64,000 bases of DNA from a virus, in IMG/VR virus record IMGVR_UViG_3300029444_000365, positions 1-64,000 of that record. One strand, given 5' to 3'. Below, piece by piece: positions 2,310 to 64,000 of this stretch. Both the position numbers and the translations under genes were made by a program. The number at the start of each line of letters is the position of its first letter. The stretch's first letter is position 1. A model generated the notes under the pieces. The model was given only the letters and a program-made list of their open reading frames with translations, made no database searches and was not told the origin of the DNA.

Positions 2310-3818
2310 TTAATCCACTTGTGGCTGATGAAAATTTACCATCTTCTCATCTGTACAAATATATGTATTGTCATACTGAGCCTTATATAAATGCTCAATC
2401 AACAAAGAGATGCAAGTTGTCACTATACTGTTACCGCTTTGTTTATATCCCTGAGTATCAGACATTCCAACTGCTTTACAGTTCTCATAATCAATATCAT
2501 CGAATCCCATGAGCCTGTGGCACTCTTTTGGCGTGAGCTTCCTCACAACTCTTAAATTGTCTCTTTCAACTTTTGGTTCTGTATTACCGCCACCACAAGT
2601 ATGCATAGCTGGTGCAATTCCATCTTCGCTATATACTCTGCGAGACTGTTCATGCATTCTCTGAAACTTTTCGCTGCATAAATCAGCAATATGTATTGGT
2701 TCGTTTGAGTCGGCAAGAATCTGTTTTGGCTGTTTATAATCGGTTGCCACTAAAGTACCCATTACTGAATCCTGCTGATAAACTAAATCTCTGTTACCTA
2801 ATCTGGTACAATTTTGTCCAATTGTTGTTCCTACTACATTCTTTTCAAATTTTGGATCTGTTATCTGAAGTCTTTTCTGTACTTCATCAGATAAGAAATA
2901 TTTCTCCAGAACACTGCTATCTGTTTCTAATAAATCCTTTAATCTGATTCCTGTATCAAAAGGCTGTGGAAATTCAAAAGACTTGGTATCAATATCCTTA
3001 CGAATAGAGATACAGAAGATTCTATTTCGATTCTGTGGAATACCTGTATTCTTTGCATTGATTGTCTGATAATATGAGTTATATCCCAAGTTATCAAGCC
3101 GAATCAGCCAATCCTTAAAACTGTCAATATACTTCTTTGATACAAGAGCATCTACATTCTCCATAAGCAAATACTTTGGTAATGTATTATTCTCTTTTGC
3201 TTTTACAAGAAGTCTCTCAACTTCATACAATAAACCTGAACGAGTTGATTTAATGTTGTGGTTGCCACAATTAGGGCATGTATAACGAGTATCTACGTCT
3301 AATTCAGATGGATCATATTCACAACCACAATCATGACATGTCCACTTTAATCCTTCCTGCTTACCGGCGATTGACAAATCTGTACATGGAGTCGAGTATG
3401 TAAGTAAATCACTATATGGCAGTGACTCAATCTGCATCATATCGCCAAGATTATGTGAAATATGGTCTGCTAACCAATATTTCTCAATACCTTTTGCCTT
3501 GTTCTTCTTTCGTGAAAGCTTCTCCCAATCATACGGAACATCTTTCTTAAAATCATATCCAAGTCTCTTATCTGTAAGCTGTTTTACCATTTCTTCTTTA
3601 CTTGGATAATCTTCATAATTTTCAATCATCTCATTAGTTAATCCACAATGAATTGCAGCATAACTAACTACTACTTCTTTGTCTAAATCTGCTGTTGCAA
3701 TCATATTTGCATTGAAGAGATGAGTATTATCAATTCCCTTCATCTGCGCACCAATACCACTGCAAAGCTCAATTACACTTAACTCACAATAATTATTTTT
3801 TTCTTTATTCTCTGTCAA
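2310..3818 (-). CDS. DNA (cytosine-5)-methyltransferase with internal zinc-ribbon insert
   Basis: motif I ELCSGIGAQ, motif IV TPCTDLSIAG (PC), ENV, QNRNRIF, TRD block SRRVYSEDGIAPAMHTCGGG, motif IX RKLTPKECHRLMGF, motif X QSGNSIV; insert CHDCGC..CPNCG. Confidence 0.85.
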   Translation of the reverse strand: MTENKEKNNYCELSVIELCSGIGAQMKGIDNTHLFNANMIATADLDKEVVVSYAAIHCGLTNEMIENYEDYPSKEEMVKQLTDKRLGYDFKKDVPYDWEKLSRKKNKAKGIEKYWLADHISHNLGDMMQIESLPYSDLLTYSTPCTDLSIAGKQEGLKWTCHDCGCEYDPSELDVDTRYTCPNCGNHNIKSTRSGLLYEVERLLVKAKENNTLPKYLLMENVDALVSKKYIDSFKDWLIRLDNLGYNSYYQTINAKNTGIPQNRNRIFCISIRKDIDTKSFEFPQPFDTGIRLKDLLETDSSVLEKYFLSDEVQKRLQITDPKFEKNVVGTTIGQNCTRLGNRDLVYQQDSVMGTLVATDYKQPKQILADSNEPIHIADLCSEKFQRMHEQSRRVYSEDGIAPAMHTCGGGNTEPKVERDNLRVVRKLTPKECHRLMGFDDIDYENCKAVGMSDTQGYKQSGNSIVTTCISLLIEHLYKAQYDNTYICTDEKMVNFHQPQVD

Positions 3819-5167: not shown

Positions 5168-5611
5168 TCACCTCTTACATACCAAAATCTCAACATCTGT
5201 ATCCGCAAAAATGTTTTTAATCTGTTCAGAGACATCATTCCAGTTCAATCTATCTAAGCCACAACCAATTACAGGCATTGCAATCTTCTTGATATTATTC
5301 TCCAAACAAATCTGTTTCATCTTTTCAAGTGCAAGTCTCATTGTAATTGTTGTTGGTTTGTGAAAATATCTCTCTTTTGTAATAAGATTTAATACCCTAT
5401 CTTCTAATAGACAATCACCACCAATCCTCTTATGAGTATACCGGTCAAAATAATATGGATATTTTGTCAGCAACCTTCTCTTCATATCAAACCTTTTATT
5501 GAACTCAACTACAATTCCTTTACCCATTCCAAAATCTGCACTGATACAATGTGCTAAATAATAATCTTCTGGTACTGTAAACAAGTCTTTATTTTCTTCT
5601 CTATATTTCAC
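5168..5611 (-). CDS. macro domain protein (ADP-ribose / ADP-ribose-1-phosphate / O-acetyl-ADP-ribose processing family)
   Basis: 147 aa, HCISADFGMGKGIVVEF...AMPVIGCGLDRL pattern typical of macro/Appr-1-p processing domains. Confidence 0.7.
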   Translation of the reverse strand: MKYREENKDLFTVPEDYYLAHCISADFGMGKGIVVEFNKRFDMKRRLLTKYPYYFDRYTHKRIGGDCLLEDRVLNLITKERYFHKPTTITMRLALEKMKQICLENNIKKIAMPVIGCGLDRLNWNDVSEQIKNIFADTDVEILVCKR

Positions 5612-5832
5612 TATTTCACCTCGCTTACCACTTTTATCTTACATTCGATTTCTACAACTTCTAGCTGCCTATCAGCGTTATAACGTCTTGACTTGAATCT
5701 TCTAACCGCATTCTCAGCAGTTTTTCTTGTTTCCCAATATTTGTGTCGTGGGTTTGTAAGATTACTTAGTAATTTTCCTGTTAATTTATCCATTACACCA
5801 TATAATGTAAATTCATTTTCCATCTCTTTCAC
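5611..5832 (-). CDS. hypothetical protein (73 aa)
   Basis: ORF, start overlaps macro gene stop. Confidence 0.45.
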   Translation of the reverse strand: MKEMENEFTLYGVMDKLTGKLLSNLTNPRHKYWETRKTAENAVRRFKSRRYNADRQLEVVEIECKIKVVSEVK

Positions 5833-7061: not shown

Positions 7062-8450
7062 TTAATACTCTATCCAACCATCTGTAATACCAGTCATCCA
7101 ATAAATAAGATCTTCTCTATCATTTTTTAATCTTCCATCTATTACACGAGTTAAGATTTCATTGAGCCAGTATCCAACTTCTTTTCCACTTTTAATGAGC
7201 ATTGTATCCATTACATCTTTTCCATTAACTGCTAAATCCTTTAGAGAAAAACATTCATCGTCCTGTAAAACTTCTTCCAAAATATATCCGATATTGTCAA
7301 TCTTCTGTAATCTTGTTTCCTGATTAATGTCTGCTTGTGCTTTAATATCAGCTCTACGAACATTTAATAACCTTCTGAACTGTTCTTCTCCAATTTTATT
7401 AAGCCATCTCTTGACATATTTCTTCCCCATCTCAAAAGTTGTATCATGATAATAAACAAGCTGCACTACTTTTTCTCTTGTATCATTATCAAAACGAAGT
7501 CTTTTCATAATTGTATCAGTCATATCAGCACTGACTCTTCCATGACCTTTAAAATGTCTAATACCATCTTCTCCATCCTGATAACAATGTGGTTTTCCTA
7601 TGTCATGAAAGAACACCGCTAATGATGTAATTAAATCTATTGAATTTAAGTCGGGTTCACAATCACATTCATAAGCTTGTACTGCATGTACTGTATGATT
7701 CCATACATCATAAATGTGATATGGATTATTCTGTTGAAAGCCAAGCATATCTTTAATTTCAGGAATGAACAACGAGAATACTTCACGGAATAATCCTATC
7801 TGTATATAAAACTCGCTTGATAATGCAATCTTACAGAACTCACTGTTGATTCTCTCAATAGATATATTCTCTAAATTCTTATACATTTTATGAATATTAA
7901 AACTCACATCAGAATCAACCACAAATCCCAGTTGTGAAGCAAACCGAATAGCACGTAAAATTCTTAAAGCATCTTCCGAAAATCTATCCTCTGCTCTACC
8001 AACACATCTGATTTTATAATGCTCAATATCTTCCATACCATTAAACGGATTTACAAGACCAACTTCATCATTGTATGCCATCGCATTGATTGTAAAATCT
8101 CTACGCTTCAAATCTTCTTTAAGACTTCGTGTAAATGTTACGCTATCAGGTCTACGACTATCTGAGTAATTACCGTCAATTCTGTAAGTGGTGCATTCAT
8201 ATCCTTCACCGTCAATTACAATGGTAATAGTTCCATGTTGTAAACCAGTTTCAATAATTCTCTTGTCCTTGAATACTTCCATCATTTCATCTGGTGTGGC
8301 AGAAGTTGTAATGTCGTAATCGTGAATTGGTCTGCCAAGAATACTATCTCTCACTGCACCACCACATAAAAATGCCTCATATCCATTATTCTGTAAAGTA
8401 TGAATAATTTCATTTGCACCAGATGGAATTTCAATTTTCAATTTCTTCAT
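7062..8450 (-). CDS. cca: CCA-adding tRNA nucleotidyltransferase with C-terminal HD domain
   Basis: GGAVRD..DxD head motif (LCGGAVRDSILGRPIHDYDITT), RRDFTINA, HD motif FFHDIGK; 462 aa. Confidence 0.85.
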   Translation of the reverse strand: MKKLKIEIPSGANEIIHTLQNNGYEAFLCGGAVRDSILGRPIHDYDITTSATPDEMMEVFKDKRIIETGLQHGTITIVIDGEGYECTTYRIDGNYSDSRRPDSVTFTRSLKEDLKRRDFTINAMAYNDEVGLVNPFNGMEDIEHYKIRCVGRAEDRFSEDALRILRAIRFASQLGFVVDSDVSFNIHKMYKNLENISIERINSEFCKIALSSEFYIQIGLFREVFSLFIPEIKDMLGFQQNNPYHIYDVWNHTVHAVQAYECDCEPDLNSIDLITSLAVFFHDIGKPHCYQDGEDGIRHFKGHGRVSADMTDTIMKRLRFDNDTREKVVQLVYYHDTTFEMGKKYVKRWLNKIGEEQFRRLLNVRRADIKAQADINQETRLQKIDNIGYILEEVLQDDECFSLKDLAVNGKDVMDTMLIKSGKEVGYWLNEILTRVIDGRLKNDREDLIYWMTGITDGWIEY

Positions 8451-9047: not shown

Positions 9048-9611
9048 TTATTCTCCTTCTAAATAACAGATTGGTACTTCTTTTGTAAGCCATACACCAT
9101 TTTGAGATAAAAAGAATTTATATCCGTCATTATACATATCTTTTGCTCGAACCTTATAAATAAACGGTTCTCCATGTCTACTGCCAACATTTGTTGCTGT
9201 TTCAATATCTTTTGATAGATGAACATATAAACGGCTCTTAGAGATTAATCCTTGTTTGTTGATTGAAGAACAATATTTGACACCTGTTCCATGATATAAA
9301 ATATCTGGTGGCATACACTCTTTTAATTCTACATCAACTTTTATAGAATGACCTTGATTTGCTCTTATAAGCGTCTTTTCTCGATTAAATGAATATCTCT
9401 GTTTAGAATCTTCTTCTACAATTTTCTCAAGCATTTTCATTGTAATCGTCTGAGTTTTATTGATTCCTTTTAATAGATCTGACACGTTAGCCCAACCATG
9501 TTTGTCTAATGTGATACCGATAACATCAGGTCTGTGTCTAAGAATTAATGCTATGTATTTGCTTAAATTATTTTGCTCTTTATTCGTCATAATGTTATCT
9601 CCATTCTCCAA
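9048..9611 (-). CDS. kptA: RNA 2'-phosphotransferase KptA/Tpt1 (NAD-dependent)
   Basis: LSKYIALILRHRP, HGT, RLYVHLS motifs; 187 aa. Confidence 0.8.
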   Translation of the reverse strand: MENGDNIMTNKEQNNLSKYIALILRHRPDVIGITLDKHGWANVSDLLKGINKTQTITMKMLEKIVEEDSKQRYSFNREKTLIRANQGHSIKVDVELKECMPPDILYHGTGVKYCSSINKQGLISKSRLYVHLSKDIETATNVGSRHGEPFIYKVRAKDMYNDGYKFFLSQNGVWLTKEVPICYLEGE

Positions 9612-19171: not shown

Positions 19172-19246
19172 CTAGGCTGGTGGGACTTGAACCCACAAAA
19201 CCTGCGGTCAAAGCGCAGTGCGTCTAACCAATTTCGCCACAGCCCA
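19172..19246 (-). tRNA. tRNA-Gln (anticodon UUG), no encoded CCA
   Basis: hand-folded cloverleaf: acceptor UGGGCUG/CAGCCUA with U1-A72, U8, D-loop GG, anticodon stem CUGCG/CGCAG, loop CUUUGAC, T-arm GUGGG-UUCAAGU-CCCAC, G73. Confidence 0.7.
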
Positions 19247-21815: not shown

Positions 21816-23264
21816 TTATGCATTTGCCATCTTATCAAAACTTCTCTTCATGAAGTCATAATTTACCTTCTGTGAAGAGCTAAATTTCTTCTGATTTTTG
21901 TATTTATTAATCCATTCCTCAAACTTGTCCTCATTCTCATTCTTGCAAGCATAAGCCATTAAAGCAATTAATGCCATCTGACACTTCTGATATAGTGGAA
22001 TATCTATTTTTATCTGATTATGATTAAAACAATACTCAACTAAATCTGTATATTCTTCAACATCCTCATTTGTCACTTCAGAATCTGCATTCTCCTGAAC
22101 AAAGGAAAGAATGCTTTCTTCCGTATTATCTTCAACATTTTCTTCCGTATTATTATTCTCTATTTCCTTGCTATTTGTTTCTGCTGTATCAATATATAAA
22201 AAATCGTTCATCAAAGCTGTATATGTATTAATTTTAGCAACTACAAGTTTTTTATCTGTAGTACCAGACTCTTTATTTAACGAATCGTAACTGACACCAT
22301 TAACATCAATACTATGTAATTTTCCTGATAACTCATGAATAAAATCTGCAAACTTGCTATCTTCTAAACCACATTTTGCAAATCTACTAAATACTGTCAG
22401 CCATACAGGAATATCTTTTTTAACAAGAATATCTTTACAAGTATCTTTACAAGCCGCTTCGATTCTTTGAAAATATTCATGGATTGTATTAAACTCTTCG
22501 ATATTACTGTTATCTTCGAGATAATCACATATTTCTTTTGCACCACGTTTATAGTCATCAAAATGAAAAACATTCATAACAGATCTGCATACACTCTGCA
22601 TATATTCTCCGTTTTTTCTGGCAGTATCAGAATACTCAATACTATTTTTAAAGAATCCTTCATCGGCAATGTTTTTAATTTTTCTTGCATATGTAGGAAT
22701 CCAAGTCAACGCTCTCTGACTTGTATTCATTCCTCTTTGTACATTCAATTTTCTTACCAATTTACTTACCTTTTTCATATCACAATTTTGATATGTGGCA
22801 ATTCTAAGCTGATAATTGTCAAATCGTTTCTTCAGTTCTTTTGGAAAATCATCATATGTTTTATTTTTAATATCAAATGTTTTCTTTTCCCATACAAAAT
22901 TCCCATCATCATCTTTTAGAAATTTACCATTTTCGTCTACTTGCTTTTCCTGGTACTCAATTTCACTATCTTCAATAGCACCAGTAAATTTATGATTTCC
23001 ATATCTAATCTGCATCAATGCGGTTGTTCTCTGAAGACCATCTACAATATATTTCTGTACAATATCTTCATTTAAAGGAATTTCGGCTAAAATTAAAGGT
23101 GGAAGATAATCACCAGTTAAGATCGTAACACCGATTCCATTAACAAATGGTTTGTCGCTACAGAAATACCTCTGTACATCCTGATTGTCATTAACATCTC
23201 CATCTTTTACCTCACTGGTATAGTTAATCAATGGAATATTTTCTTCTCTTACTTTCTTTGCCAT
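21816..23264 (-). CDS. DUF262-like (GmrSD N-terminal, DGQQR-motif ParB-fold) protein, 482 aa
   Basis: IVDGLQRTTALMQI = DGQQR signature of DUF262; long acidic C-terminal region. Confidence 0.6.
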   Translation of the reverse strand: MAKKVREENIPLINYTSEVKDGDVNDNQDVQRYFCSDKPFVNGIGVTILTGDYLPPLILAEIPLNEDIVQKYIVDGLQRTTALMQIRYGNHKFTGAIEDSEIEYQEKQVDENGKFLKDDDGNFVWEKKTFDIKNKTYDDFPKELKKRFDNYQLRIATYQNCDMKKVSKLVRKLNVQRGMNTSQRALTWIPTYARKIKNIADEGFFKNSIEYSDTARKNGEYMQSVCRSVMNVFHFDDYKRGAKEICDYLEDNSNIEEFNTIHEYFQRIEAACKDTCKDILVKKDIPVWLTVFSRFAKCGLEDSKFADFIHELSGKLHSIDVNGVSYDSLNKESGTTDKKLVVAKINTYTALMNDFLYIDTAETNSKEIENNNTEENVEDNTEESILSFVQENADSEVTNEDVEEYTDLVEYCFNHNQIKIDIPLYQKCQMALIALMAYACKNENEDKFEEWINKYKNQKKFSSSQKVNYDFMKRSFDKMANA

Positions 23265-24588: not shown

Positions 24589-24715
24589 CGTTAGTGGATT
24601 AAACTATGGTAGAACTATAGCAGCTACACATTCTGCTCTTACAAGGCAATATGTATGTACAAAGAAACAAGTACCTTGCGTACTGCACTTACATCGGGTG
24701 TGATTCAGTGCATAA

Positions 24716-24787
24716 CGGGGCTACTGGGATTCGAACCCAGAAATACATGGATCAAAACCATGTGCCTTGCCATTTGGCGATAACCCT
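24716..24787 (-). tRNA. tRNA-Gln (anticodon UUG), no encoded CCA
   Basis: AGGGUUAUCGCCAAAUGGCAAGGCACAUGGUUUUGAUCCAUG...GGGUUCGAAUCCCAGUAGCCCCG; close to bacterial tRNA-Gln, unpaired 1:72, G73. Confidence 0.75.
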
Positions 24788-24845
24788 ATAATTTATTAAA
24801 TTTTGATTAAATATGTGAAAAATATGCTGAATTGCTTGAATTTAA

Positions 24846-26092: not shown

Positions 26093-26285
26093 ATTTAACG
26101 AGATCAAATGGTTGCACTTCCATTGCTTTAGCAACCAAATCAAGTACAGCTAAGTCAGGAACAGCACTTCCATTTTCCCATTTACTGATTGTACTTGGTG
26201 CAATGTCAGACATTTTCGCAAGCCCTCTTACTGTTATTCTCTTTTCAGTTCTGATTTTCTTTCCAATATATTTAACCATAATCAC
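26082..26285 (-). CDS. XRE-family HTH transcriptional regulator (67 aa)
   Basis: RGLAKMSDIAPSTISKWENG; 3' end overlaps convergent XRE gene by 11 nt. Confidence 0.65.
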   Translation of the reverse strand: MIMVKYIGKKIRTEKRITVRGLAKMSDIAPSTISKWENGSAVPDLAVLDLVAKAMEVQPFDLVKFIY

Positions 26286-27310
26286 ATCTCCATCAATTTC
26301 TCTTTCATTCCAACAGCTCCGTTTGCATAATTATTAACTGTTGTATTTACACTACTATGCCCCAACTGTTGTTGCACAAATGCAAGATTTCCATTCTGAT
26401 TCATTATACTAGCATAATAATGTCGCATCATATGTGGAGTAATACCATTTCCATAATTCTCAAATATCTGTTTGATATTTCTTTCCGTGGTACGTGTGCC
26501 ATTCTTATTAATAAAAACTGCTTCTTTGTCTACAATATTATTCAATGTGTTTCTATACTCTAGCCATTCTCTTAATGCTTTCAGAGCAGATCCAGTAAGA
26601 TATACAGGTCTTTTTTCAGTTTCTCTTTGATATCCTTTTGGTAAAACCATAATATGTGACATATCATTAAGATCAATATATTCACTATTTTCATCTAAAT
26701 GCAAATCTGATAAATCCAAACCAGCAAGTTCAGACTCTCTTATTCCAGTTCCTCTTAAGACACGAAAAATAGCAATATTCCTATTCCTTACACATTCATC
26801 CTTTTTCCACATTATTTTTTCTTCCATACCATTAAGCTGATTTTCTGTTGGAAGTTTTTGTGTTAAGTTGTTTTTAGAAGATATCCCTTTATATTTTATT
26901 TGTTTACTAAAATCTTCCATACTGTTATAAAGTTCTCTCAATAAACATTCTCTATATGAATATACATTTTTTATAAAACTTTTTATAATATTCTTTCTTG
27001 TTTCCGTTGTGGTTGGCGACATTCCATTTGTTTCCTTATATCTAAGGTATGAACTAATATTTTGTGGTCGCAAGTCGCTAAAATCAGAAACTTCTATTTC
27101 AGAAATTGATTTCTTATTAATAATATTACTTTCAATCAACCACTGTAAAAAATCTTTAATTGCTACTAAATAATTTAACGCTCCGTTCTTGCTTTCCAAC
27201 TCATTCAAGTAATCTCTTAAAAACTGTGGTGCATTTAACTCATCCAACTTCCTATTAAGCTTTTCAGCATTTTTATTTTGCACTTCTATCTTATAACACA
27301 TAATTATCAC
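26282..27310 (-). CDS. int: tyrosine recombinase / phage integrase
   Basis: C-terminal HMMRHYYAS...LGHSSVNTTVNNYAN (HxxR...Y) catalytic motifs; 342 aa. Confidence 0.8.
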   Translation of the reverse strand: MIIMCYKIEVQNKNAEKLNRKLDELNAPQFLRDYLNELESKNGALNYLVAIKDFLQWLIESNIINKKSISEIEVSDFSDLRPQNISSYLRYKETNGMSPTTTETRKNIIKSFIKNVYSYRECLLRELYNSMEDFSKQIKYKGISSKNNLTQKLPTENQLNGMEEKIMWKKDECVRNRNIAIFRVLRGTGIRESELAGLDLSDLHLDENSEYIDLNDMSHIMVLPKGYQRETEKRPVYLTGSALKALREWLEYRNTLNNIVDKEAVFINKNGTRTTERNIKQIFENYGNGITPHMMRHYYASIMNQNGNLAFVQQQLGHSSVNTTVNNYANGAVGMKEKLMEM

Positions 27311-53621: not shown

Positions 53622-54599
53622 ATGAATACATATCTAATACCAACAACAGCAGCTTATTGCTATGAACCTTATGATCATATCTATCTCGCATATGCCAACA
53701 CTCCACTAGAAGCATATAGAAAAGCACAAACAGAATTACAAGGTGAATACATACCACAAAAATTACAAAAATATGAATCATACTCATTTGAATTATATAA
53801 GCCAAATGACACTGCTACTTTCCCATTTCCAGAATCTCAAAAATATGATATACTTACAGAAGCGTTTAAGAATACAAAAGGAGCTGAGAATATGGGACAT
53901 TTTAATGTAAATTGGAATGAATATACTGAAGTTTTATCTAAAAAAGCAGATAAAGAAATTTGGTCAAATCCGACTTATCCTAATAATGGTATATTAACTA
54001 ATTATCTAGTTCATACCTATAAACGTCTTAGAACAGAAAGACAAATTATAAGAAAAGATAATTATGCTTTATTTAATACAGGACTCTTTACCAAGTATTA
54101 TGAATCAATATATGCGTATTCTGATCAGGAGTATAATGTATCATTTCTTACTGGACATGAATTAAATCAACATGGAATATCTGAACGTCCACAAAAAGCT
54201 AATTATTTTGAAGATCCTTCTCTTCTATTGTTTGATTGGCATTACCCAATAGATATACATTTCAAGCATATTTTGGAAGATGAAAAGAATAAAGAAAGAT
54301 TACCAAAAGGATTTTTAGAAAAAGAAAATAAAATGTGTATCTTAACAGGCGCAGTTGAATTAATGAAACGTAGAGTTTCAGCAAACTATAAATTAGCAAT
54401 TCCACAATGTTATGAAGATAAAATTCAATTATTACTTCCTTTATGTTTAGACACAGACGAAGGAAAACCTGATTTAGCTCTTGCAGTCACAAAATTAGAT
54501 AATTGTTATCAAGGATACACATGTTTAACACTTGATATGGCATATAATAATGCTCGTCTTATAGCTAAACCAGAGTCTAGTTGGTTATATTCTAAGTAA
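53622..54599 (+). CDS. hypothetical protein (325 aa)
   Basis: strong RBS AAAGGAGAAAAC; no family recognised. Confidence 0.6.
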   Translation: MNTYLIPTTAAYCYEPYDHIYLAYANTPLEAYRKAQTELQGEYIPQKLQKYESYSFELYKPNDTATFPFPESQKYDILTEAFKNTKGAENMGHFNVNWNEYTEVLSKKADKEIWSNPTYPNNGILTNYLVHTYKRLRTERQIIRKDNYALFNTGLFTKYYESIYAYSDQEYNVSFLTGHELNQHGISERPQKANYFEDPSLLLFDWHYPIDIHFKHILEDEKNKERLPKGFLEKENKMCILTGAVELMKRRVSANYKLAIPQCYEDKIQLLLPLCLDTDEGKPDLALAVTKLDNCYQGYTCLTLDMAYNNARLIAKPESSWLYSK

Positions 54600-55532: not shown

Positions 55533-56651
55533 ATGGAGAATAAAACTATAGGTACATCATACATGTACCTAAATGAAACCATCAATTTAAAACATATGTA
55601 TTTAAATCAACCAATAACAATCAAACAAAAGAAAGAAGGAATTATTATAATTGGGGTATATTCTATAACAAATTTGAAAACTAAAAAATTATATATTGGA
55701 GAAAGTCTTGATATTGATAAAAGATGGATTAACCATAAAAATGATCTTTTAAATAACCAACACGCTAATTATTATCTTCAACAAGATTTTAATAAGTTTG
55801 GGAAGGCATTTTTTAAATTTGAAGTTCTGCAAGAAGTTGAAAGAGATAGTATCACTATTACTCAATCCAAATTATTGATGTTAGAAAATGCTTATATAGA
55901 AAAATATAAAAATGAAGATTATGAATTATATAACATAGAAAATACACTAGAAGATGTTCTTTCAAATAAAAGGAAATTATTGGTTTGCGAAGAAATTGCA
56001 AATTATGTTGTAGTGTCTCAATTTTTAAGAAATAAATATGTATATGATTATACAAATAAAAGATTTAATTATTGTCAAAGAGATACAATTGAAAATTTAA
56101 TATTATCTAATTCTTCCATCAAAGGGAAAGAAAAAGCAAAGCAAGTTGCAAACATAATATTAAAAGAGTTAATTGATCAGAATTTATATGAAAACTTTAT
56201 AATAGAAAACACTTACTCTATTTATCTATATCATAAAATTCAAGAACGTAAAATTATAGAAATTAATTCTAAAGGTCGAGAATATATATTAAATCATTAT
56301 GACTTTAATTCGTTTTTATTGAGAAAAAGAACTTCTGAAACCAAATTTTATATACAACAATATCCCTCTGAAAAGAAAATTAAACCAGAAGATCAAAATA
56401 GAATACAAGATGTTTGGCATAAACTTAAAGATAAATGCATTTTACCACCAGAAAATAAATACAATGATTTTCGAGATATGCTTATAAAATTAAATTTAAT
56501 TATTATTGATAATAATAAGAGAACACGAGCAACTGAATTTGCAATGAAAAATAAATATTTTTTAGTTGTTAAATATAATAAAGCTAAAGATATTTATCAA
56601 TATGTTATATCTCAAGATGGTTTAAGGTATATTTTAGCAAATATAAAATAA
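55533..56651 (+). CDS. GIY-YIG homing-endonuclease-like protein (372 aa)
   Basis: GVYSITNLKTKKLYIGESLDIDKRWINHKN = GIY...YIG..R..H/N motif; long DNA-binding-type tail. Confidence 0.7.
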   Translation: MENKTIGTSYMYLNETINLKHMYLNQPITIKQKKEGIIIIGVYSITNLKTKKLYIGESLDIDKRWINHKNDLLNNQHANYYLQQDFNKFGKAFFKFEVLQEVERDSITITQSKLLMLENAYIEKYKNEDYELYNIENTLEDVLSNKRKLLVCEEIANYVVVSQFLRNKYVYDYTNKRFNYCQRDTIENLILSNSSIKGKEKAKQVANIILKELIDQNLYENFIIENTYSIYLYHKIQERKIIEINSKGREYILNHYDFNSFLLRKRTSETKFYIQQYPSEKKIKPEDQNRIQDVWHKLKDKCILPPENKYNDFRDMLIKLNLIIIDNNKRTRATEFAMKNKYFLVVKYNKAKDIYQYVISQDGLRYILANIK

Positions 56652-56889: not shown

Positions 56890-57696
56890 TTGCAACAAAA
56901 AATAGAATATTTTACACGTTTCCCAAATGGCTATATCCAAGGGAATATCAAAACAAAATATGGAGTTAGTAGGAAATTTTATATCACATACATACTTATA
57001 GATAAATACAGATCATATGAAGACTATAGTTGGATTACTATTCGTAAAGTAATGGAATTCTATGGCTATAAAACAACCAAACATAAACCAAAAGCATTTC
57101 ACGAAATTCTCGATGTATTAGAATATATGGTTAATAATAAAATGATTGAAGTAAAACAAGACCTTGATTCTATAGGATATGATACTGGAATTGAGATTAA
57201 GATAATTCCTGAAAATTTTGATCCGTGTAAAGATTTTTCAAAACTCACATCATCTCAATATGATTTTATAATGATGAATGAATCTTCTATAAATAGAGAG
57301 AATATATTAGTAGCCTTTCTATATATTAATTCTTATATTTATCTACGACAAAGAGATAAAAATGGCAATGAGCTATTATCAAAACCACAAGACAAGCCAG
57401 AAGCCTTTTGGCGAAGTATAGATTCTATGTCGAAAGAACTTTCTATGTCAAAAGACACAATTAATCAATGTATTCAATATCTCACATCTTCTATTGGCGA
57501 CAAAGAACCACTTCTAATCAAAAAAGAAGTCGGTAGTGTTCAGCCTGATCCCAAAAAACCACCACAAAATGTACCAAATATATATGTACTTAATAAAGAA
57601 GGATATGAGCAAGAAATTGAATGGGCTATTGCTAAGATGTTAGAAATCTATAATGTAGACTCATTTGGAGAAATCAAAAACGGCAATAAGTCGTAA
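56890..57696 (+). CDS. hypothetical protein (268 aa), TTG start
   Basis: AAAGGAG RBS; operator pair upstream suggests a regulated (early/regulatory) gene. Confidence 0.55.
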   Translation: MQQKIEYFTRFPNGYIQGNIKTKYGVSRKFYITYILIDKYRSYEDYSWITIRKVMEFYGYKTTKHKPKAFHEILDVLEYMVNNKMIEVKQDLDSIGYDTGIEIKIIPENFDPCKDFSKLTSSQYDFIMMNESSINRENILVAFLYINSYIYLRQRDKNGNELLSKPQDKPEAFWRSIDSMSKELSMSKDTINQCIQYLTSSIGDKEPLLIKKEVGSVQPDPKKPPQNVPNIYVLNKEGYEQEIEWAIAKMLEIYNVDSFGEIKNGNKS

Positions 57697-59526: not shown

Positions 59527-59991
59527 ATGGCTGGTATAGTTGAAAAAGAAACCAATTTTTATCTATATAAGATTATAGATAAAGACGAATTAGTGTATAT
59601 TGGGAAATCAACTAATATTGATAATAGAATTGAAGTTCATAGCGTTATAAATAATCATTTTGATAAAAACACGTATTTTATATGTAGAGGAGAAAGTATA
59701 TCAAATTTGGTTATTTATATTGCAAATGTTCCTGACGAGTATCTTTTGTCAATATATGAAATAACATTAATTTCAAAATATAAACCACTATATAATAACA
59801 GCGACAAGTATGATACAAAACATCTATTAAAGTTACCAAAAATAAATTGGTTTCCATATGTATCAAAAGAAAATTGTGAAGCAATTTATAACATGAAAAC
59901 AGGCAAGATTATTGATACTTGTTTAATAGATACACCACTAAAAAGATGGAATATTTTAAAAGATTTACATATGGAGGAAATTAAATGTTAG
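59527..59991 (+). CDS. small GIY-YIG-like endonuclease (154 aa)
   Basis: NFYLYKIIDKDELVYIGKSTNIDNRIEVH; AAGGAGGA RBS. Confidence 0.55.
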   Translation: MAGIVEKETNFYLYKIIDKDELVYIGKSTNIDNRIEVHSVINNHFDKNTYFICRGESISNLVIYIANVPDEYLLSIYEITLISKYKPLYNNSDKYDTKHLLKLPKINWFPYVSKENCEAIYNMKTGKIIDTCLIDTPLKRWNILKDLHMEEIKC

Positions 59992-62753
59992 ATACACAGA
60001 TTAATATGTATTCTGTTGATACAGGTCATTTTTATAGCAATCATGAAAAATACTTACATGAAATGAACTGTAAATACAGACGTGAAAGAAATTATGTAAA
60101 TAATATGCTTCCAAAATTAGAAGAAGAACTCGTAACGCAAGGTTATAACAAAGATGATTTTTCTGATTGGAAACGTTGTACCGTTGAAGACTACTATGAA
60201 CAAGAAAATGATTCTGTAAAAGAATATATGAAGTGGTGTTTGATTATAAAACACAAAAGAGAGAAAGCAAATTTATCAAAAGAAAAACTTTTGAATCTAT
60301 TATCAAATAAGACAATTCAAAAAGAGAATCTATCGAATAAAATCGAGTATTGCAAATCGCATAATATTCCATATAATAAAAAAATCGAATTAAGAGAGTT
60401 AAGAAAAGACGAACTAAATGATAATAATATCATTTCAGTATTTGAATCTTCCCTTACCCGTATTATCGGCATTAAAAAAGACGAACTAACAGACGCTCTT
60501 ATTGTAGTTCAAGTTTATTATTTTGATGTATTTAAAGATTTATCTTTTTATGGATTTATGTATAATGGCGAAAAATACAGATACTTTACATCTTCTGCTG
60601 GTCAAATTCGTAAGAAAAAAGCTGTTTTTATTAAAGAATCAGTATGGAATGAAGTTGAAAAGACAGTCATGTGTGGTCTTACTATTGATAAAATAAACTC
60701 AAAGGGTGGAAACAATGTAAATAAACATCTTGCATATATGGCATTGGCGAATTCAGCTACTGACCAGTGGAATGATTTTAATATAGACAGATGTATTGTT
60801 GTAGATGATTTTGAAACGAATGTTCCAGGAGAATTTGATTTTATTGATGAGACTGATTATTCGATTGAGAGAAAAACTGGTACTGTTCCGATTACTCATA
60901 CTGATGGAGCTGGCATGATGTTGCCAAGCGTAATGATGAAAAATACAATGTTTCGTGCGCCTTGGGTAAAAGGTTTATTGGGGGTATTTGATTTTAAAAA
61001 GTTTATTGAAGTGAACAACTGCTCTCCTATTATCACAGATATTTATGGACAAGACCATGATGTAATTGCTGAAGATATTAGAATAATTTTCACAAAAAGT
61101 CAATTTAAGATGTATAAGTTTTACGATTCATGGGATGAGTATAAGACATATTTTAAGCAATATCATTGTCAAGCTGGTAGATGCAACACTGAGGAAGATA
61201 GAATTAAAAATGCAAAAATCAATTATCAGATGTTACAAACTCTCACAAATGTAACAGACGAAGAGATTGATTTACTTACAAAGAAGTCTGTAGAACGAAT
61301 TACAAATATTTGTAACTCTGTTGATACCATGAAAGATATTCTTGGAATTACACCTTATAATACAAATATGACAGCTTTTCAAAAAGCAGTAAATATTTAT
61401 CCTGCTCTACTCAACGATACATATGCAAAAGACGTGATCCGTGAAGTAAAGAATAGCCTTTTAAAAAAATATAGAAGTGGAAAACTTGAAGTAAATGGAA
61501 AATATACTTTCTTACTTCCAGATTATTATGCAGCTTGTGAGTATTGGTTTGGGCACATTGATACACCTAAAGGATTGTTGGCAGACAAAGAGGTGTTTTG
61601 TTGGTTATTTAAACAATATGATAAACTTGACTGTCTAAGAAGTCCTCACCTCTACAAAGAACATGCTATTCGTTTTAATGTGGCGAATAAAGTATATGAG
61701 GAACGAGTTGATAAAATCAGAGAATGGTTTATAACAAATGCGGTATATACAAGTACATATGACTTGATTAGTAAAATTCTTCAGTTTGATGTTGATGGAG
61801 ATAAATCATTGGTGGTTGCTGATCCTGATTTTGTAAGAATCGCAGAACGTAATATGAATGGTGTTGTACCACTCTATTATAATATGCGTAAAGCTGAACC
61901 AAGAATTTTGAATAATCAGAGTATTTATGAAGGATTAAATGCGGCATTTACAGGTGGAAATATCGGTATTTATAGCAACAATATTTCAAAAATCTGGAAT
62001 AATGACGTATTTATCAATGGAACAGATGAGGAAAAAGAACATGCAACTAATTGTGTCAAGCGTTTATGCTGTCAAAATAATTTTGTTATTGATTACGCTA
62101 AGACATTATACAAACCTGAGTTTCCAGAAACAATTGGTGAAGAAATTAAAGAGTTTACCAATCAGAAACTTCCTGCATTCTTTGAATACGCCAAAGACAA
62201 GGAAAAATCACAAGTTGATGATAGAAATGATAGTTTTGTAAATAAACTCTACTCTCGTATTCCTAATAAATCAATTAATACAAGAGGTATGAAACTTGGA
62301 GAATTAAAATATAAGGATATGATGAAAAACCCTGATATTGTATGCTCTAAAGAAGTTTCTGATTTGTATGATGAGTTAAACAAGAAGTATCGTTATATGA
62401 TTAATATGAAGGATGAATATATTGATAATCTTCATTATGTAGCTTGTTCTATTAGAAACCAGTTTGCGGAGCTTGGATATTCGGAAGAAATGATTGCTGA
62501 TATGCTTGTGCAGTATTTGTATGAAGGGGAAAAACGTGGAAAACAATTATTTTGGTTTTGTTATGGTCAGTATGTAGTTGTCAATTTAGAGAAAAATCCA
62601 AATATTAAAAAGAAAAAGACTAAAATGATTCAGTGTATTGATTGTGGTGAATGGATTGAAGTTGATTTTATGTCCAAGTCATGTAGATGTGAACTTTGTC
62701 AGCATGAATATCGAAAACAGCTTGATCGAGAAAGAAAAAGAAAAAACAAGTAA
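59985..62753 (+). CDS. YonO-like single-subunit two-barrel (DPBB) DNA-dependent RNA polymerase, 922 aa
   Basis: LRSPHLYKEHA (beta-prime RxPxLH DPBB1 motif) ~50 aa upstream of QFDVDGDKSLVV (beta-prime NADFDGDQMAVH catalytic motif); size and phage context as SPbeta YonO. Confidence 0.6.
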   Translation: MLDTQINMYSVDTGHFYSNHEKYLHEMNCKYRRERNYVNNMLPKLEEELVTQGYNKDDFSDWKRCTVEDYYEQENDSVKEYMKWCLIIKHKREKANLSKEKLLNLLSNKTIQKENLSNKIEYCKSHNIPYNKKIELRELRKDELNDNNIISVFESSLTRIIGIKKDELTDALIVVQVYYFDVFKDLSFYGFMYNGEKYRYFTSSAGQIRKKKAVFIKESVWNEVEKTVMCGLTIDKINSKGGNNVNKHLAYMALANSATDQWNDFNIDRCIVVDDFETNVPGEFDFIDETDYSIERKTGTVPITHTDGAGMMLPSVMMKNTMFRAPWVKGLLGVFDFKKFIEVNNCSPIITDIYGQDHDVIAEDIRIIFTKSQFKMYKFYDSWDEYKTYFKQYHCQAGRCNTEEDRIKNAKINYQMLQTLTNVTDEEIDLLTKKSVERITNICNSVDTMKDILGITPYNTNMTAFQKAVNIYPALLNDTYAKDVIREVKNSLLKKYRSGKLEVNGKYTFLLPDYYAACEYWFGHIDTPKGLLADKEVFCWLFKQYDKLDCLRSPHLYKEHAIRFNVANKVYEERVDKIREWFITNAVYTSTYDLISKILQFDVDGDKSLVVADPDFVRIAERNMNGVVPLYYNMRKAEPRILNNQSIYEGLNAAFTGGNIGIYSNNISKIWNNDVFINGTDEEKEHATNCVKRLCCQNNFVIDYAKTLYKPEFPETIGEEIKEFTNQKLPAFFEYAKDKEKSQVDDRNDSFVNKLYSRIPNKSINTRGMKLGELKYKDMMKNPDIVCSKEVSDLYDELNKKYRYMINMKDEYIDNLHYVACSIRNQFAELGYSEEMIADMLVQYLYEGEKRGKQLFWFCYGQYVVVNLEKNPNIKKKKTKMIQCIDCGEWIEVDFMSKSCRCELCQHEYRKQLDRERKRKNK

Positions 62754-62792: not shown

Positions 62793-62832
62793 AATGGACT
62801 ATTTTTAAATGCTATTTTTTAAATAGTCCATT
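62793..62832 (+). other. 12-bp perfect inverted repeat AATGGACTATTT...AAATAGTCCATT (16-nt loop) after RNAP gene
   Basis: seen directly; no U-run, so a hairpin or protein site rather than a classic terminator. Confidence 0.4.
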
Positions 62833-62953
62833 CAATATGGACTTTCATTTGTGTCTATATGGAGAACAACATATCATATAGGCATAAGCCTAATTTACAA
62901 ATCAAGATATGTTTCTATAAACGAATTCGTGCAGTTGGGAGGAATGATTATTT

Positions 62954-63247
62954 TTGACAATTACACAGGAAAAGATTATTAAAGAAATCGCAGAGAAAGA
63001 AGATATAAATGTAGCGACAGTCCGTAAGGTATTCAAAAGGGCAGAGAAATGTATATTCGCCTACCTATCTTCTACTACTCCCACTGATAATACAGTGGTA
63101 AAAATTTTAGATGGATTAAGTTTGGAATGTAAATATATTCCAGAAAAAGAAATTCATACATATGATAATATCCGATGTGAGGCAAAAATTTGGACGAAAC
63201 CAAAAATAACTCGTTATTACAATAGAAAGTTAAATGGATATTTTTGA
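62954..63247 (+). CDS. HU/IHF-like DNA-binding protein (97 aa), TTG start
   Basis: ITQEKIIKEIAEKEDINVATVRKVF...VKILDGLSLECKYIPEKE resembles HU family (as SPO1 TF1); GGGAGG RBS. Confidence 0.4.
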   Translation: MTITQEKIIKEIAEKEDINVATVRKVFKRAEKCIFAYLSSTTPTDNTVVKILDGLSLECKYIPEKEIHTYDNIRCEAKIWTKPKITRYYNRKLNGYF

Positions 63248-63281: not shown

Positions 63282-63300
63282 AACAGAGAATATATAATTG
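63282..63300 (+). promoter_or_regulatory. AACAGAGAATATATAATTG promoter-like motif (contains TATAAT)
   Basis: follows hairpin ATCAGC-ttttcttg-GCTGAT. Confidence 0.35.
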
Positions 63301-63615: not shown

Positions 63616-63689
63616 CGCGGAATGACGAGCAATGGAAGCTCACTTGGCTCATAACCAAGAGTATGCAGGTTCGAGTCCTGTTTCCGCAA
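63616..63689 (+). tRNA. tRNA-Met/initiator-like (anticodon CAU), no encoded CCA
   Basis: anticodon stem CUUGG/CCAAG with loop CUCAUAA, T-arm GCAGG-UUCGAGU-CCUGU, acceptor CGCGGAA/UUCCGCA with C1:A72 mismatch (initiator-like), D-arm GAGC/GCUC; D-region offset unresolved by hand. Confidence 0.5.
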
Positions 63690-64000
63690 CTCTCCTACTT
63701 TTTGTAGGACGGTCGGTTTCGGATCGTGAGTTGTTGAAACTCAAAATAAACTTAGTAATAAGGATAAAGCAGGAATGTCTTTAGTTCGCATAAGACACTG
63801 CGACTGCGCATAGTAGTTTGACGGAAAACACAGATAATCTATACCAAACCTAAAACCAGAGGGCTACTGCTAATGATATGGCTTGGTAGGGGCGATGAAA
63901 AACGCTCTGTATTAACATGGAAACATGGGTATGATTACTGTCTTATTGGTGCGATTTCCGCAAGAAAAAGTGCTGATATTGATTGTTGCAACGTTTCTTA

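Follow-up and report, generated by a model that had tools for sequence, protein, structure and literature searches.

Among the known relatives of cellular RNA polymerases, enzymes of the YonO type are the smallest, and they serve as models of the ancestral two-barrel enzyme. YonO of phage SPbeta is DNA-dependent and processive, with a strong preference for DNA templates; its Asp triad is essential, the 3D>3N mutant being inactive, and late genes require the enzyme (PMC5467207). Eight residues are invariant in all two-barrel RNA polymerases, namely four Asp, three Arg or Lys and one Pro, which in QDE-1 are D709, R738, K743, R962, P964, D1007, D1009 and D1011 (Ruprich-Robert & Thuriaux 2010; PMC2919709). 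Here we analyse a polymerase gene near the end of a 64,000-nucleotide stretch of viral DNA, hereafter the window. The enzyme class was described and characterised before, so that one further member is unsurprising, and the window polymerase is a true yet unexceptional representative of the already characterised YonO family.

The open reading frame starts at an ATG preceded by a Shine–Dalgarno sequence that makes a good site as judged from sequence, and homology among relatives begins exactly at this Shine–Dalgarno sequence and start codon. BLASTP aligns the protein with SPbeta YonO over 779 residues at 45% identity (E = 0), catalytic loops included, and phrog_8308 matches it end to end (residues 2–891 of 922). 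By tblastn, 25 phage records reach a query coverage of 80% or more; almost all are SPbeta-like Bacillus phages annotated as yonO or DNA-directed RNA polymerase. A preliminary description had read this 922-residue frame as a YonO-class two-barrel polymerase of a Firmicute phage on the strength of two quoted motifs. The frame is real, both motifs can be located in it (Table 1), and sequence, predicted structure and synteny together give full support to its assignment as a single-subunit two-barrel RNA polymerase of the YonO class.

Table 1. Features of the polymerase locus, in window coordinates.
Feature	Position	Strand	Remarks
Larger GIY-YIG homing-endonuclease-like gene	55533..56651	+	372 aa; Pfam 30.4 bits, E = 4.8e-7
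Small GIY-YIG nuclease gene	59527..59991	+	154 aa; Pfam GIY-YIG 31.5 bits (cut-off 22.6), E = 2.3e-7
Shine–Dalgarno GGAGGA of the polymerase gene	59973..59978	+	Within the 3′ end of the small GIY-YIG frame
Polymerase gene (YonO-family single-subunit two-barrel RNA polymerase)	59985..62753	+	922 aa
Beta-like barrel active-site residues THTDGAG (D307) and FRAPWVKGLL (R324, K329, G330)	60894..60980	+	Invariant in 142 homologues
TKSQFKMY motif	61092..61115	+	T370, S372 and K375 invariant; recurrent interruption site in relatives
LRSPHLYKEH, R-x-P motif of the beta-prime-like barrel (R552, P554)	61635..61664	+	aa 551–560; invariant in 142 homologues
QFDVDGDKSLVV, catalytic Mg-binding loop with Asp triad D602/D604/D606	61782..61817	+	aa 600–611; triad invariant
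NNFVIDYAKT motif	62076..62105	+	D703 and K706 invariant; main intron-like insertion site in relatives
C-terminal CxxC-N14-CxxC, putative zinc ribbon	62634..62699	+	C884/C887/C902/C905
Terminator-like hairpins	62793..62843	+	40–90 nt past the polymerase stop codon; scan match 62825–62843
HU-like DNA-binding protein gene, divergent	62954..63247	+	97 aa; position of SPbeta yonN
AACAGAGAATATATAAT, recurrent-motif copy at the head of the non-coding leader, candidate promoter	63282..63298	+	Overlaps sigma-70-like TTGGCT-16-TATAAT
Leader tRNA-Met, 3′ of the polymerase/HU-like pair and ahead of the late genes	63616..63690	+	ARAGORN, Rfam
Structured non-coding region; probable 5′ portion of a GOLLD-like RNA	63691..64000	+	Fold z = −2.5

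Counterparts of all eight invariant residues (D307, R324, K329, R552, P554, D602, D604 and D606) are present and are themselves invariant in a set of 142 homologues that spans three clades and reaches down to about 20% identity. Mapped by motif, not by structural superposition, they follow the same order as in QDE-1, with the same R-to-K (+5) and R-x-P spacing. In the beta-like barrel, D307, R324 and K329 match QDE-1 D709, R738 and K743; in the beta-prime-like barrel, R552 and P554 correspond to R962 and P964 of QDE-1 and to R446 and P448 of Rpb1 (PMC2919709), and the loop QFDVDGDKSLVV aligns with QFDNDGDKALII of YonO. The invariance of R552, P554, D602, D604 and D606 places both quoted motifs, LRSPHLYKEH and QFDVDGDKSLVV, far beyond chance. 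They had been presented as the two hallmark double-psi beta-barrel motifs; both are present, but both belong to the single beta-prime-like barrel, and the signature of the beta-like barrel (D307/R324/K329) lies in neither. Conservation shows D602, D604 and D606 to form the two-metal site together with D307 from the other barrel, and R324, K329 and R552 to make contacts with the incoming NTP and the 3′ end of the RNA. At the C terminus, the four cysteines of the putative zinc ribbon are kept in 92 of the 92 homologues having this tail, YonO shows the same pattern, and two short strands (879–883 and 890–894) are predicted in the region by AF2.

The AF2 model of the whole polymerase is confident (pLDDT 91.9, pTM 0.86), and the predicted fold comprises two double-psi beta-barrel (DPBB) domains forming a catalytic cleft. 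Rather than lying in a disordered region, the DxDGD tract is modelled with pLDDT above 90 and adjoins strand 607–611. The preliminary description had proposed a comparison with DPBB polymerases, gp66 among them, and this similarity is indeed found: the strong PDB neighbours of the model are two-barrel polymerases only (RDR2, QDE-1, crAss gp66 and P23-45 gp62/gp96), with RDR2 and QDE-1 making up the top 17 Foldseek matches (E = 2e-17 to 2e-10). Searches of PDB sequences return no polymerase match with either the protein or the 142-sequence profile as query, and the link to solved structures is by fold comparison only. That the best structural neighbours are cellular RNA-dependent RNA polymerases, that the sole Pfam match is ‘RdRP’ (PF05183, 46.8 bits against a gathering threshold of 23.8) and that homologues are labelled ‘RNA dependent RNA polymerase’ in databases could suggest an enzyme that copies or amplifies RNA instead of transcribing phage DNA. 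However, the Pfam family name is not to be taken as function, the closest characterised homologue being DNA-templated. YonO, the only characterised close relative, prefers DNA and is needed for late-gene transcription (PMC5467207), and the window gene belongs to a dsDNA phage, where it heads a late module with the SPbeta gene order; we therefore consider RNA-templated activity very improbable. From the 45% identity to SPbeta YonO and the shared gene order, we infer that the polymerase is DNA-dependent and processive, its template specificity, promoter and regulon all being transferred from the homologue at this level of identity.

The neighbourhood reproduces the SPbeta order yonO–yonN(HU)–ncRNA–yonK–yonJ. 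In a phage or prophage setting, at the head of the late module, the polymerase gene is followed by the HU-like gene, a non-coding tRNA/RNA leader and YonK/YonJ-type late genes, and the terminator-like hairpins stand where SPbeta has an annotated stem-loop. The HU-like gene lies directly 3′ of the polymerase gene in 45 related loci. Its 97-residue product is weakly assigned by sequence: hhalign aligns it with HU over its full length at E = 2.5e-4 with a probability of 43%, relatives match Pfam Bac_DNA_binding (E = 0.0016 and 0.0086), profile searches give weak PDB matches to ASFV pA104R and SPO1 TF1, and a single-sequence AF2 model (pLDDT 54) is too poor for a fold search. In contig L002, to which the window is identical across 14 kb, the conserved 3′ domain of the GOLLD-like RNA is found just past the window end (L002 14068–14524, equivalent to window positions 64052–64508). 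The Rfam GOLLD model (RF02032) is covered in full at 74.7 bits (E = 6e-19); because this score is below the gathering score of 150, the RNA is named GOLLD-like only. As is usual for GOLLD RNAs, tRNAs lie on either side of it. Downstream of the polymerase gene, window-identical contigs carry genes for an HU-like protein, beta-CASP and ClpP, then a small ORF and genes for a YonJ-like protein and HU, and the small ORF preceding the YonJ-like gene in relative L013 has a Pfam YonK domain.

Taken as a whole, the locus is very probably best explained by a YonO-family DNA-dependent polymerase that transcribes the late module of an SPbeta-like Lachnospiraceae phage. One polypeptide chain of about 105 kDa would carry the two double-psi beta-barrels that form the active site in cellular RNA polymerases. 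It would be made from an operon extending from about 57.7 to 62.8 kb and ending at the terminator-like hairpin, and would then transcribe the late module, starting within the non-coding leader that follows the HU-like gene and reading tRNA-Met, the GOLLD-like RNA and a second tRNA and then the genes for a beta-CASP nuclease, a ClpP-like protease and YonK-/YonJ-like proteins. The HU-like neighbour could, speculatively, act as an accessory or promoter-architecture factor. The polymerase gene is preceded by 6.4 kb of a plus-strand block made up of small unknown genes, and because SPbeta has no such block, the timing of expression may differ from that of SPbeta YonO. Packaging in the virion and injection with the DNA, as for crAss-like gp66 or P23-45 gp96, is extremely improbable: the protein has 922 residues, compared with 2166 in gp66, and no structural-protein fusion, its gene lies upstream of and outside the structural module, and SPbeta YonO is expressed after induction.

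A recurrent motif, AGAGAATA, had been put forward in the preliminary description as a possible promoter of the polymerase. It occurs 34 times, compared with 6.6 expected, every time on the coding strand. More than half of the copies (19/34) are at gene boundaries, one of them 34 nt upstream of a tRNA-Gln gene, and the copies share no −35 element but an extended consensus, AAAC-AGAGAATA-(A/T)n-TATA. Such a pattern could be read as the signature of a general or early polymerase acting at about 20 gene-boundary copies genome-wide and perhaps amplifying itself through the copy ahead of its own operon. The copy at 63282 is located where analogy with SPbeta, in which the YonO transcription start site is within the yonN–yonK gap, predicts a late-operon promoter, and a Pfam scan of about 26 neighbouring ORFs detects no sigma factor. 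Against this, copies of the motif stand ahead of early-type genes on both arms and ahead of the operon with the polymerase gene itself, whereas in SPbeta YonO serves 37 late genes only, from one start site. The motif is also absent from SPbeta and from most relatives with 55–80% identical polymerases, including L014 (80%), and the copy at 63282 overlaps a sigma-70-like element. Phage sigma-like factors that work through the host polymerase recognise single 8-bp elements just as typically, T4 late promoters being an example. We regard a general or early role as unlikely. The suggestion that AGAGAATA is the promoter of the polymerase is not supported, and its distribution in SPbeta and relatives leads us to reject a family-wide role as YonO promoter; the motif seems to be a transcription signal specific to the lineage. 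A sigma-70 promoter scan is uninformative (77 matches against 76 expected), and among 40 relatives no k-mer is conserved 3′ of the HU-like gene beyond A-rich words at shuffle level. An 11-mer, GATTAAACAAT, common to the region after the HU-like gene and to the SPbeta YonO start-site region, is judged a chance match because it is absent from all closer relatives and its one-mismatch copies number 5 where 6 are expected. It is a doubtful proposal that the YonO-type polymerase and the divergent HU-like protein, its universal neighbour, together initiate at a short single-element AACAGAGAATA-type promoter at 63282, with the tRNA and GOLLD-like leader as first products ahead of the late genes. If true, it would supply the promoter and initiation-factor logic of YonO-type enzymes and would name the polymerase making a giant ornate RNA in lytic growth.

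Both GIY-YIG genes lie upstream of the polymerase gene, and the downstream neighbour is HU-like, so the polymerase is not ‘flanked’ by them as first described. The small gene abuts the polymerase start with a 7-nt overlap (ATGTTAG) and is translationally coupled to it; the 3′ end of the larger gene is 3.33 kb upstream. Pfam recognises the GIY-YIG catalytic domain alone in each, with about 60 uncharacterised C-terminal residues in the 154-residue protein, and the larger protein matches phrog_7168 ‘homing endonuclease’ (E = 2.6e-15), PHROG homing-endonuclease family matches spanning 175–250 residues. In the four contexts shown for the identical polymerase, the small gene is always present, and the larger one is carried by L002 and L004 but not by L003 and L005. 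Other relatives have unrelated ORFs of 346 or 118 residues in the slot just upstream, with homology resuming exactly at the polymerase start. The window polymerase gene is uninterrupted, and several relatives are split exactly at catalytic motifs, some insertions carrying GIY-YIG: BUCT083, Goe14 and phi3T at YonO residue 625/626 (NNFTID|FAKTL), L048 at the equivalent NNFVIDYAKT site and L049 at residues 377/378, by the TKSQFKMY motif, with fragments ending in ...NNFxID or ...TKSQFKM. The insertions in L048 and L049 match no Rfam intron model, and BUCT083 gives only a sub-threshold group I match (20 bits, E = 0.02); group I introns may interrupt these yonO genes. The variable upstream slot, the presence or absence of the larger gene and the interrupted relatives indirectly support the homing-endonuclease traffic suggested earlier for this locus. 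Both genes would be free-standing mobile nuclease genes that have settled beside a conserved essential gene and are not part of the polymerase.

The phage that carries the gene is large, temperate and SPbeta-like, with gut Lachnospiraceae as hosts. The identical polymerase protein occurs in 76 contig blocks, relatives are located in Lachnospiraceae genomes, and clustering the YonO family at 50% identity gives about 1,180 clusters; when the 12 kb surrounding the polymerase gene are compared with phage genomes by megablast, no near-identical record is returned. The gene shows that the YonO family is common in gut Lachnospiraceae phages. With its conserved HU-like partner gene, its tRNA/GOLLD-like leader and, in the family, recurrent intron-like insertions at three catalytic motifs, the locus brings together, in a small space, features that bear on questions raised in SPbeta: which promoter and which accessory factor are used, and what role the long non-coding leader plays.

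Compared with SPbeta YonO (Forrest et al. 2017, PMC5467207), the window polymerase has the same motifs (TDG, R..KG, TKSQFK, RSPHL, DxDGD and NNFxIDxAKT), the same N-terminal beta-hairpin/helix start and C-terminal CxxC...CxxC, and the same surroundings of hairpin, HU-type gene, long non-coding leader and downstream YonK/YonJ-type late genes. It differs in having 83 additional residues, mainly in a longer N-terminal coiled-coil (helices 19–51 and 76–125), and in its host, Lachnospiraceae instead of Bacillus. The protein encoded next downstream is HU-like but highly divergent, and a canonical HU is encoded about 8 kb beyond it; the leader contains tRNAs and a GOLLD-like RNA, and a coupled GIY-YIG gene is found upstream where SPbeta has yonP. 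Neurospora QDE-1 and plant RDR2 share only 11–15% identity with it, are both missed by a profile search of PDB sequences and are RNA-templated eukaryotic silencing enzymes, whereas the close homologue of the window polymerase is DNA-templated. Gp66 of crAss-like phi14:2 and gp62 and gp96 of Thermus phages P23-45/P74-26 have no detectable sequence similarity to it, and gp66 and gp96 are virion proteins or structural-protein fusions with a different domain decoration. Free-standing phage GIY-YIG homing endonucleases are exemplified by the T4 Seg proteins and by F-CphI with its ‘collaborative homing’. The window genes resemble them in their catalytic domain, in their intergenic slot beside a conserved essential gene, in presence, absence or replacement among syntenic genomes and in a neighbour family with intron-like insertions; they differ in that the 154-residue protein lacks a recognisable DNA-binding module and that the polymerase gene beside it is intact.

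The polymerase gene encodes a member of the family of YonO, the single-chain two-barrel RNA polymerase of phage SPbeta, and by analogy the enzyme would work like YonO. The 922-residue ORF announced in the preliminary description is present, with both peptides quoted there. Pairwise BLASTP gives 45% identity to SPbeta YonO over 779 residues (E = 0), with LRSPHLYKEH aligned to LRSPHLFREH and QFDVDGDKSLVV to QFDNDGDKALII. The two proteins have in common the extreme N-terminus (MYSVDTGHFYSN in the window, IYSIDTSAFYND in YonO) and a C-terminal CxxC...CxxC, and the 83 extra residues of the window protein are an expanded N-terminal helical region with no new domain. In PHROGs, phrog_8308 is matched end to end (E = 2.7e-246); the single Pfam match is RdRP (PF05183, E = 2.3e-12, 46.8 bits against a cut-off of 23.8), a family name that should not be taken as the function of the polymerase. 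A tblastn search of 50,697 phage records matched 40, 25 of them at at least 80% query coverage; nearly all of these 25 are SPbeta-like Bacillus phages whose gene is named yonO or 'DNA-directed RNA polymerase YonO'. Matches also came from Clostridium phage D-1873 (49%) and, over 100% of the query, from Psychrobacillus phage Perkons (43%). In the assembly collection, 76 blocks hold contigs that encode the identical polymerase. Because a genome scan found 42 related loci at 55–80% identity, and an exhaustive HMMER search gave 1,180 clusters at 50% identity (E <= 1e-3; 373 at <= 1e-30), the polymerase ranks as typical of a family that is large and already described. The related loci are almost all from Lachnospiraceae (Lachnospira, Faecalicatena, Lactonifactor, Blautia, Roseburia and Acetatifactor), to which we take 'Bacteroides pectinophilus' to belong. 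Since that species is among the carriers listed in 2010 and 2017 (PMC2919709, PMC5467207), those papers had in effect already recorded the Lachnospiraceae branch.

We aligned the polymerase with 141 full-length, non-redundant homologues drawn from three clades, whose identity to the query is 83–73%, 49–43% and 23–19%. The 37 invariant columns include D307-G308, R324, K329-G330, T370/S372/K375, R552, P554, D602, D604, D606, D703 and K706. Eight residues are invariant in all two-barrel RNA polymerases according to Ruprich-Robert & Thuriaux, in QDE-1 D709, R738, K743, R962, P964, D1007, D1009 and D1011 (PMC2919709). Their counterparts here are D307, R324, K329, R552, P554, D602, D604 and D606, in the same order and with R(+5)K and R-x-P spacing identical to QDE-1. 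This correspondence places both motifs of the preliminary description in the beta-prime-like barrel; the signature of the beta-like barrel, which that description missed, is THTDGAG ... FRAPWVKGLL at residues 304–332. AlphaFold2, run on the homologue alignment, gave a mean pLDDT of 91.9 and a pTM of 0.86, and the catalytic DxDGD block, with pLDDT above 90, adjoins strand 607–611, so the loop lies in an ordered region as anticipated. The expected similarity to DPBB polymerases was also found: plant RDR2 and fungal QDE-1 account for all 17 significant Foldseek matches in the PDB (E = 2e-17 to 2e-10, TM 0.40–0.52), and in a viral predicted-structure library phage 'RNA dependent RNA polymerase' entries come first. 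Conserved catalytic residues, a confidently predicted fold and matching synteny, together with the identity to YonO, bear out the proposed class.

The polymerase start and the stop of the upstream 154-residue ORF share 7 nt, ATGTTAG. Among seven aligned relatives, DNA-level similarity starts exactly at the Shine-Dalgarno sequence and start codon and is absent upstream, which fixes the start codon and marks the preceding slot as variable. That slot holds an unrelated 346-residue ORF with a weak DUF2726 match and the same 7-nt overlap in 80%-identity relatives, and a 118-residue ORF in one 73%-identity relative. Both the 154- and the 372-residue GIY-YIG ORFs pass Pfam; the larger is in two, and missing from two, contigs encoding the identical polymerase, and the DUF3825 gene is kept in all four. 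In one such contig (L005, 6558–7679, against window ~56890–57696), an IS605-type TnpB (OrfB_IS605/Cas12f-like) and other ORFs stand upstream of the polymerase in place of the large GIY-YIG gene and a 268-residue ORF, from which we conclude that mobile genes have a hot spot in the 6 kb before the polymerase.

In Bacillus phages BUCT083, Goe14 and phi3T, yonO is split exactly between residues 625 and 626 (NNFTID/FAKTL). The insertion measures ~0.45 kb in phi3T and ~1.3 kb in the other two; in BUCT083 it carries a GIY-YIG/NUMOD3/HTH ORF, in Goe14 an ORF of equal size that has no annotation. Two Lachnospiraceae relatives are split at the NNFxID motif (L048, ~5245–5656) and after TKSQFKMY (L049, 4084–4442). 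Many fragments among the 50%-cluster representatives break off exactly at ...ILQFD (whose D is the first catalytic Asp), ...NNFxID or ...TKSQFKM, and one starts M-DGDKSLVV. These splits and fragment ends point to three recurrent insertion sites, each within an invariant catalytic motif (TKSQFKM/, ILQFD/xDGD and NNFxID/xAKT). Mobile introns classically leave such a pattern, and the yonO insertions are probably mobile group I introns. Interrupted homologues were recorded at L007 3338–4627, L056, L057, L048 and L049, and among the representatives P0371–P0510; the window's gene is uninterrupted at all three sites. The variable slot and the interrupted relatives support the suggested homing-endonuclease traffic in spirit, but the GIY-YIG genes do not flank the polymerase.

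The motif AGAGAATA occurs 34 times in the window against 6.6 expected, on the coding strand only. A crude gene model puts 12 copies between genes and another 7 <=40 nt from the end of the upstream ORF; the intergenic copies have a common longer form, (A/G)AAAC-AGAGAATA-(A/T)-rich-TATA, frequently after a hairpin. The extended form reads AAACAGAGAATA(A/T). One copy stands 34 nt 5' of tRNA-Gln, which argues for a transcription rather than a translation signal. Copies precede early-type minus-arm genes, the first plus-strand gene and the polymerase-containing operon. SPbeta has none. Among 40 related loci, an exact copy lies <=200 nt after the HU-like gene only in the window's own group, L009–L012 and L039; L013 carries a one-mismatch copy in that interval and an exact one further downstream, the 2.4 kb downstream in L014 (polymerase 80% identical) contain none, and no other conserved word was found after the HU-like gene in the 40 loci. 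Its place before early-type genes and its absence from SPbeta and most relatives make it improbable that AGAGAATA is the promoter of the window polymerase, as had been proposed. It is a strand-specific gene-boundary motif restricted to the window's phage lineage, and probably a promoter, with the host polymerase plus a further factor, or the phage polymerase, as candidate readers.

Positions of the polymerase gene, its signals and other features of the phage
Feature	Position	Strand	Basis or remark
Polymerase ORF	59985-62753	+	922 aa; ORF listing of window
Shine-Dalgarno GGAGGA before polymerase ATG	59973-59978	+	sequence
LRSPHLYKEH	aa 551-560 of polymerase	+	sequence
QFDVDGDKSLVV	aa 600-611 of polymerase	+	sequence
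Terminator-like hairpin, presumed end of polymerase operon	62793-62843	+	
AGAGAATA, example sites	56850, 57704, 63285	+	
AGAGAATA, example sites	39127, 23882, 19287	-	
DUF3825 protein, first plus-arm gene	53622-54599	+	Pfam E = 8e-57
C5 cytosine DNA methylase	2310-3818	-	minus-strand arm
CCA-adding tRNA nucleotidyltransferase	7062-8450	-	PolyA_pol head + HD
tRNA-Gln(UUG), two genes besides tRNA-Met	19172-19246, 24715-24788	-	
Weak GmrSD_N-like protein	21816-23264	-	minus-strand arm
Tyrosine recombinase (Phage_integrase)	26282-27310	-	minus-strand arm

Directly 3' of the polymerase gene lies a 97-residue HU-like ORF (62954–63247), as in 45 of the 45 related loci where its homologue was sought. 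Its 27-sequence profile aligns with HU over the full length (hhalign E = 2.5e-4, probability 43%), two relatives have sub-threshold matches to Pfam Bac_DNA_binding (E = 0.0016 and 0.0086), and its weak PDB profile matches are HU-family proteins, including ASFV pA104R and SPO1 TF1. In SPbeta, BUCT083, Goe14, phi3T, D-1873 and PMBT24, too, the gene after the polymerase is of HU type; the HU genes that come after yonO in SPbeta-like, Clostridium and Enterocloster phages are canonical. Apart from the polymerase, nothing at the locus is better conserved than this pairing, and this makes the HU-like protein, by inference, a reasonable candidate for the 'additional factor' of YonO left open by Forrest et al. 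(PMC5467207).

YonO carries out processive, DNA-templated RNA synthesis without proofreading and with an essential Asp triad; it is expressed after induction, and the late operon is transcribed from a start downstream of the HU gene (PMC5467207). By analogy, we infer that the window enzyme shares these activities and the late-operon role. Its gene would be the last cistron of the operon ending at the hairpin, and the enzyme would then serve the late module beginning in the leader, ~63.25–64.9 kb.

Contig L002 is identical to the window across their shared 14 kb. After the polymerase gene come the hairpin, the 97-residue ORF and a 1.6-kb non-coding leader, then a beta-CASP metallo-beta-lactamase nuclease, a 496-residue protein, a ClpP-type protease, a small ORF, a YonJ-like protein (Pfam YonJ_N/YonJ_CC) and a canonical HU; at the position of the small ORF, L013 has a Pfam YonK-domain protein. 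Within the leader, between tRNA-Met (63616–63690) and a second tRNA, lies a GOLLD-like giant ornate RNA (window 63691–64000, continuing at L002 14017–14524, window-equivalent 64001–64508), which covers the full Rfam model RF02032 at 74.7 bits (E = 6e-19), below the gathering score of 150. At this place, downstream of yonO/HU, L013, L048 and D-1873 (L008) have tRNA islands. The D-1873 leader has a drum RNA (L008 12350–12457; 47.7 bits, above gathering score). Other small structured-RNA families occur in the SPbeta yonN-yonK gap (L001 10189–10254 and 8835–8944), where a DUF3800-VIII RNA scores 47.5 bits, above gathering score, beside a sub-threshold skipping-rope match.

The gene order in SPbeta is yonP-yonO-hairpin-yonN(HU)-1.7 kb non-coding-yonK-yonJ, and the YonO-dependent transcription start lies inside the yonN-yonK gap (PMC5467207); the published primer-extension primers map to L001 9090–9113 and ~9307–9332. 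At the relative position of the window's GOLLD-like RNA, SPbeta has this YonO start site and an 'unannotated ncRNA'.
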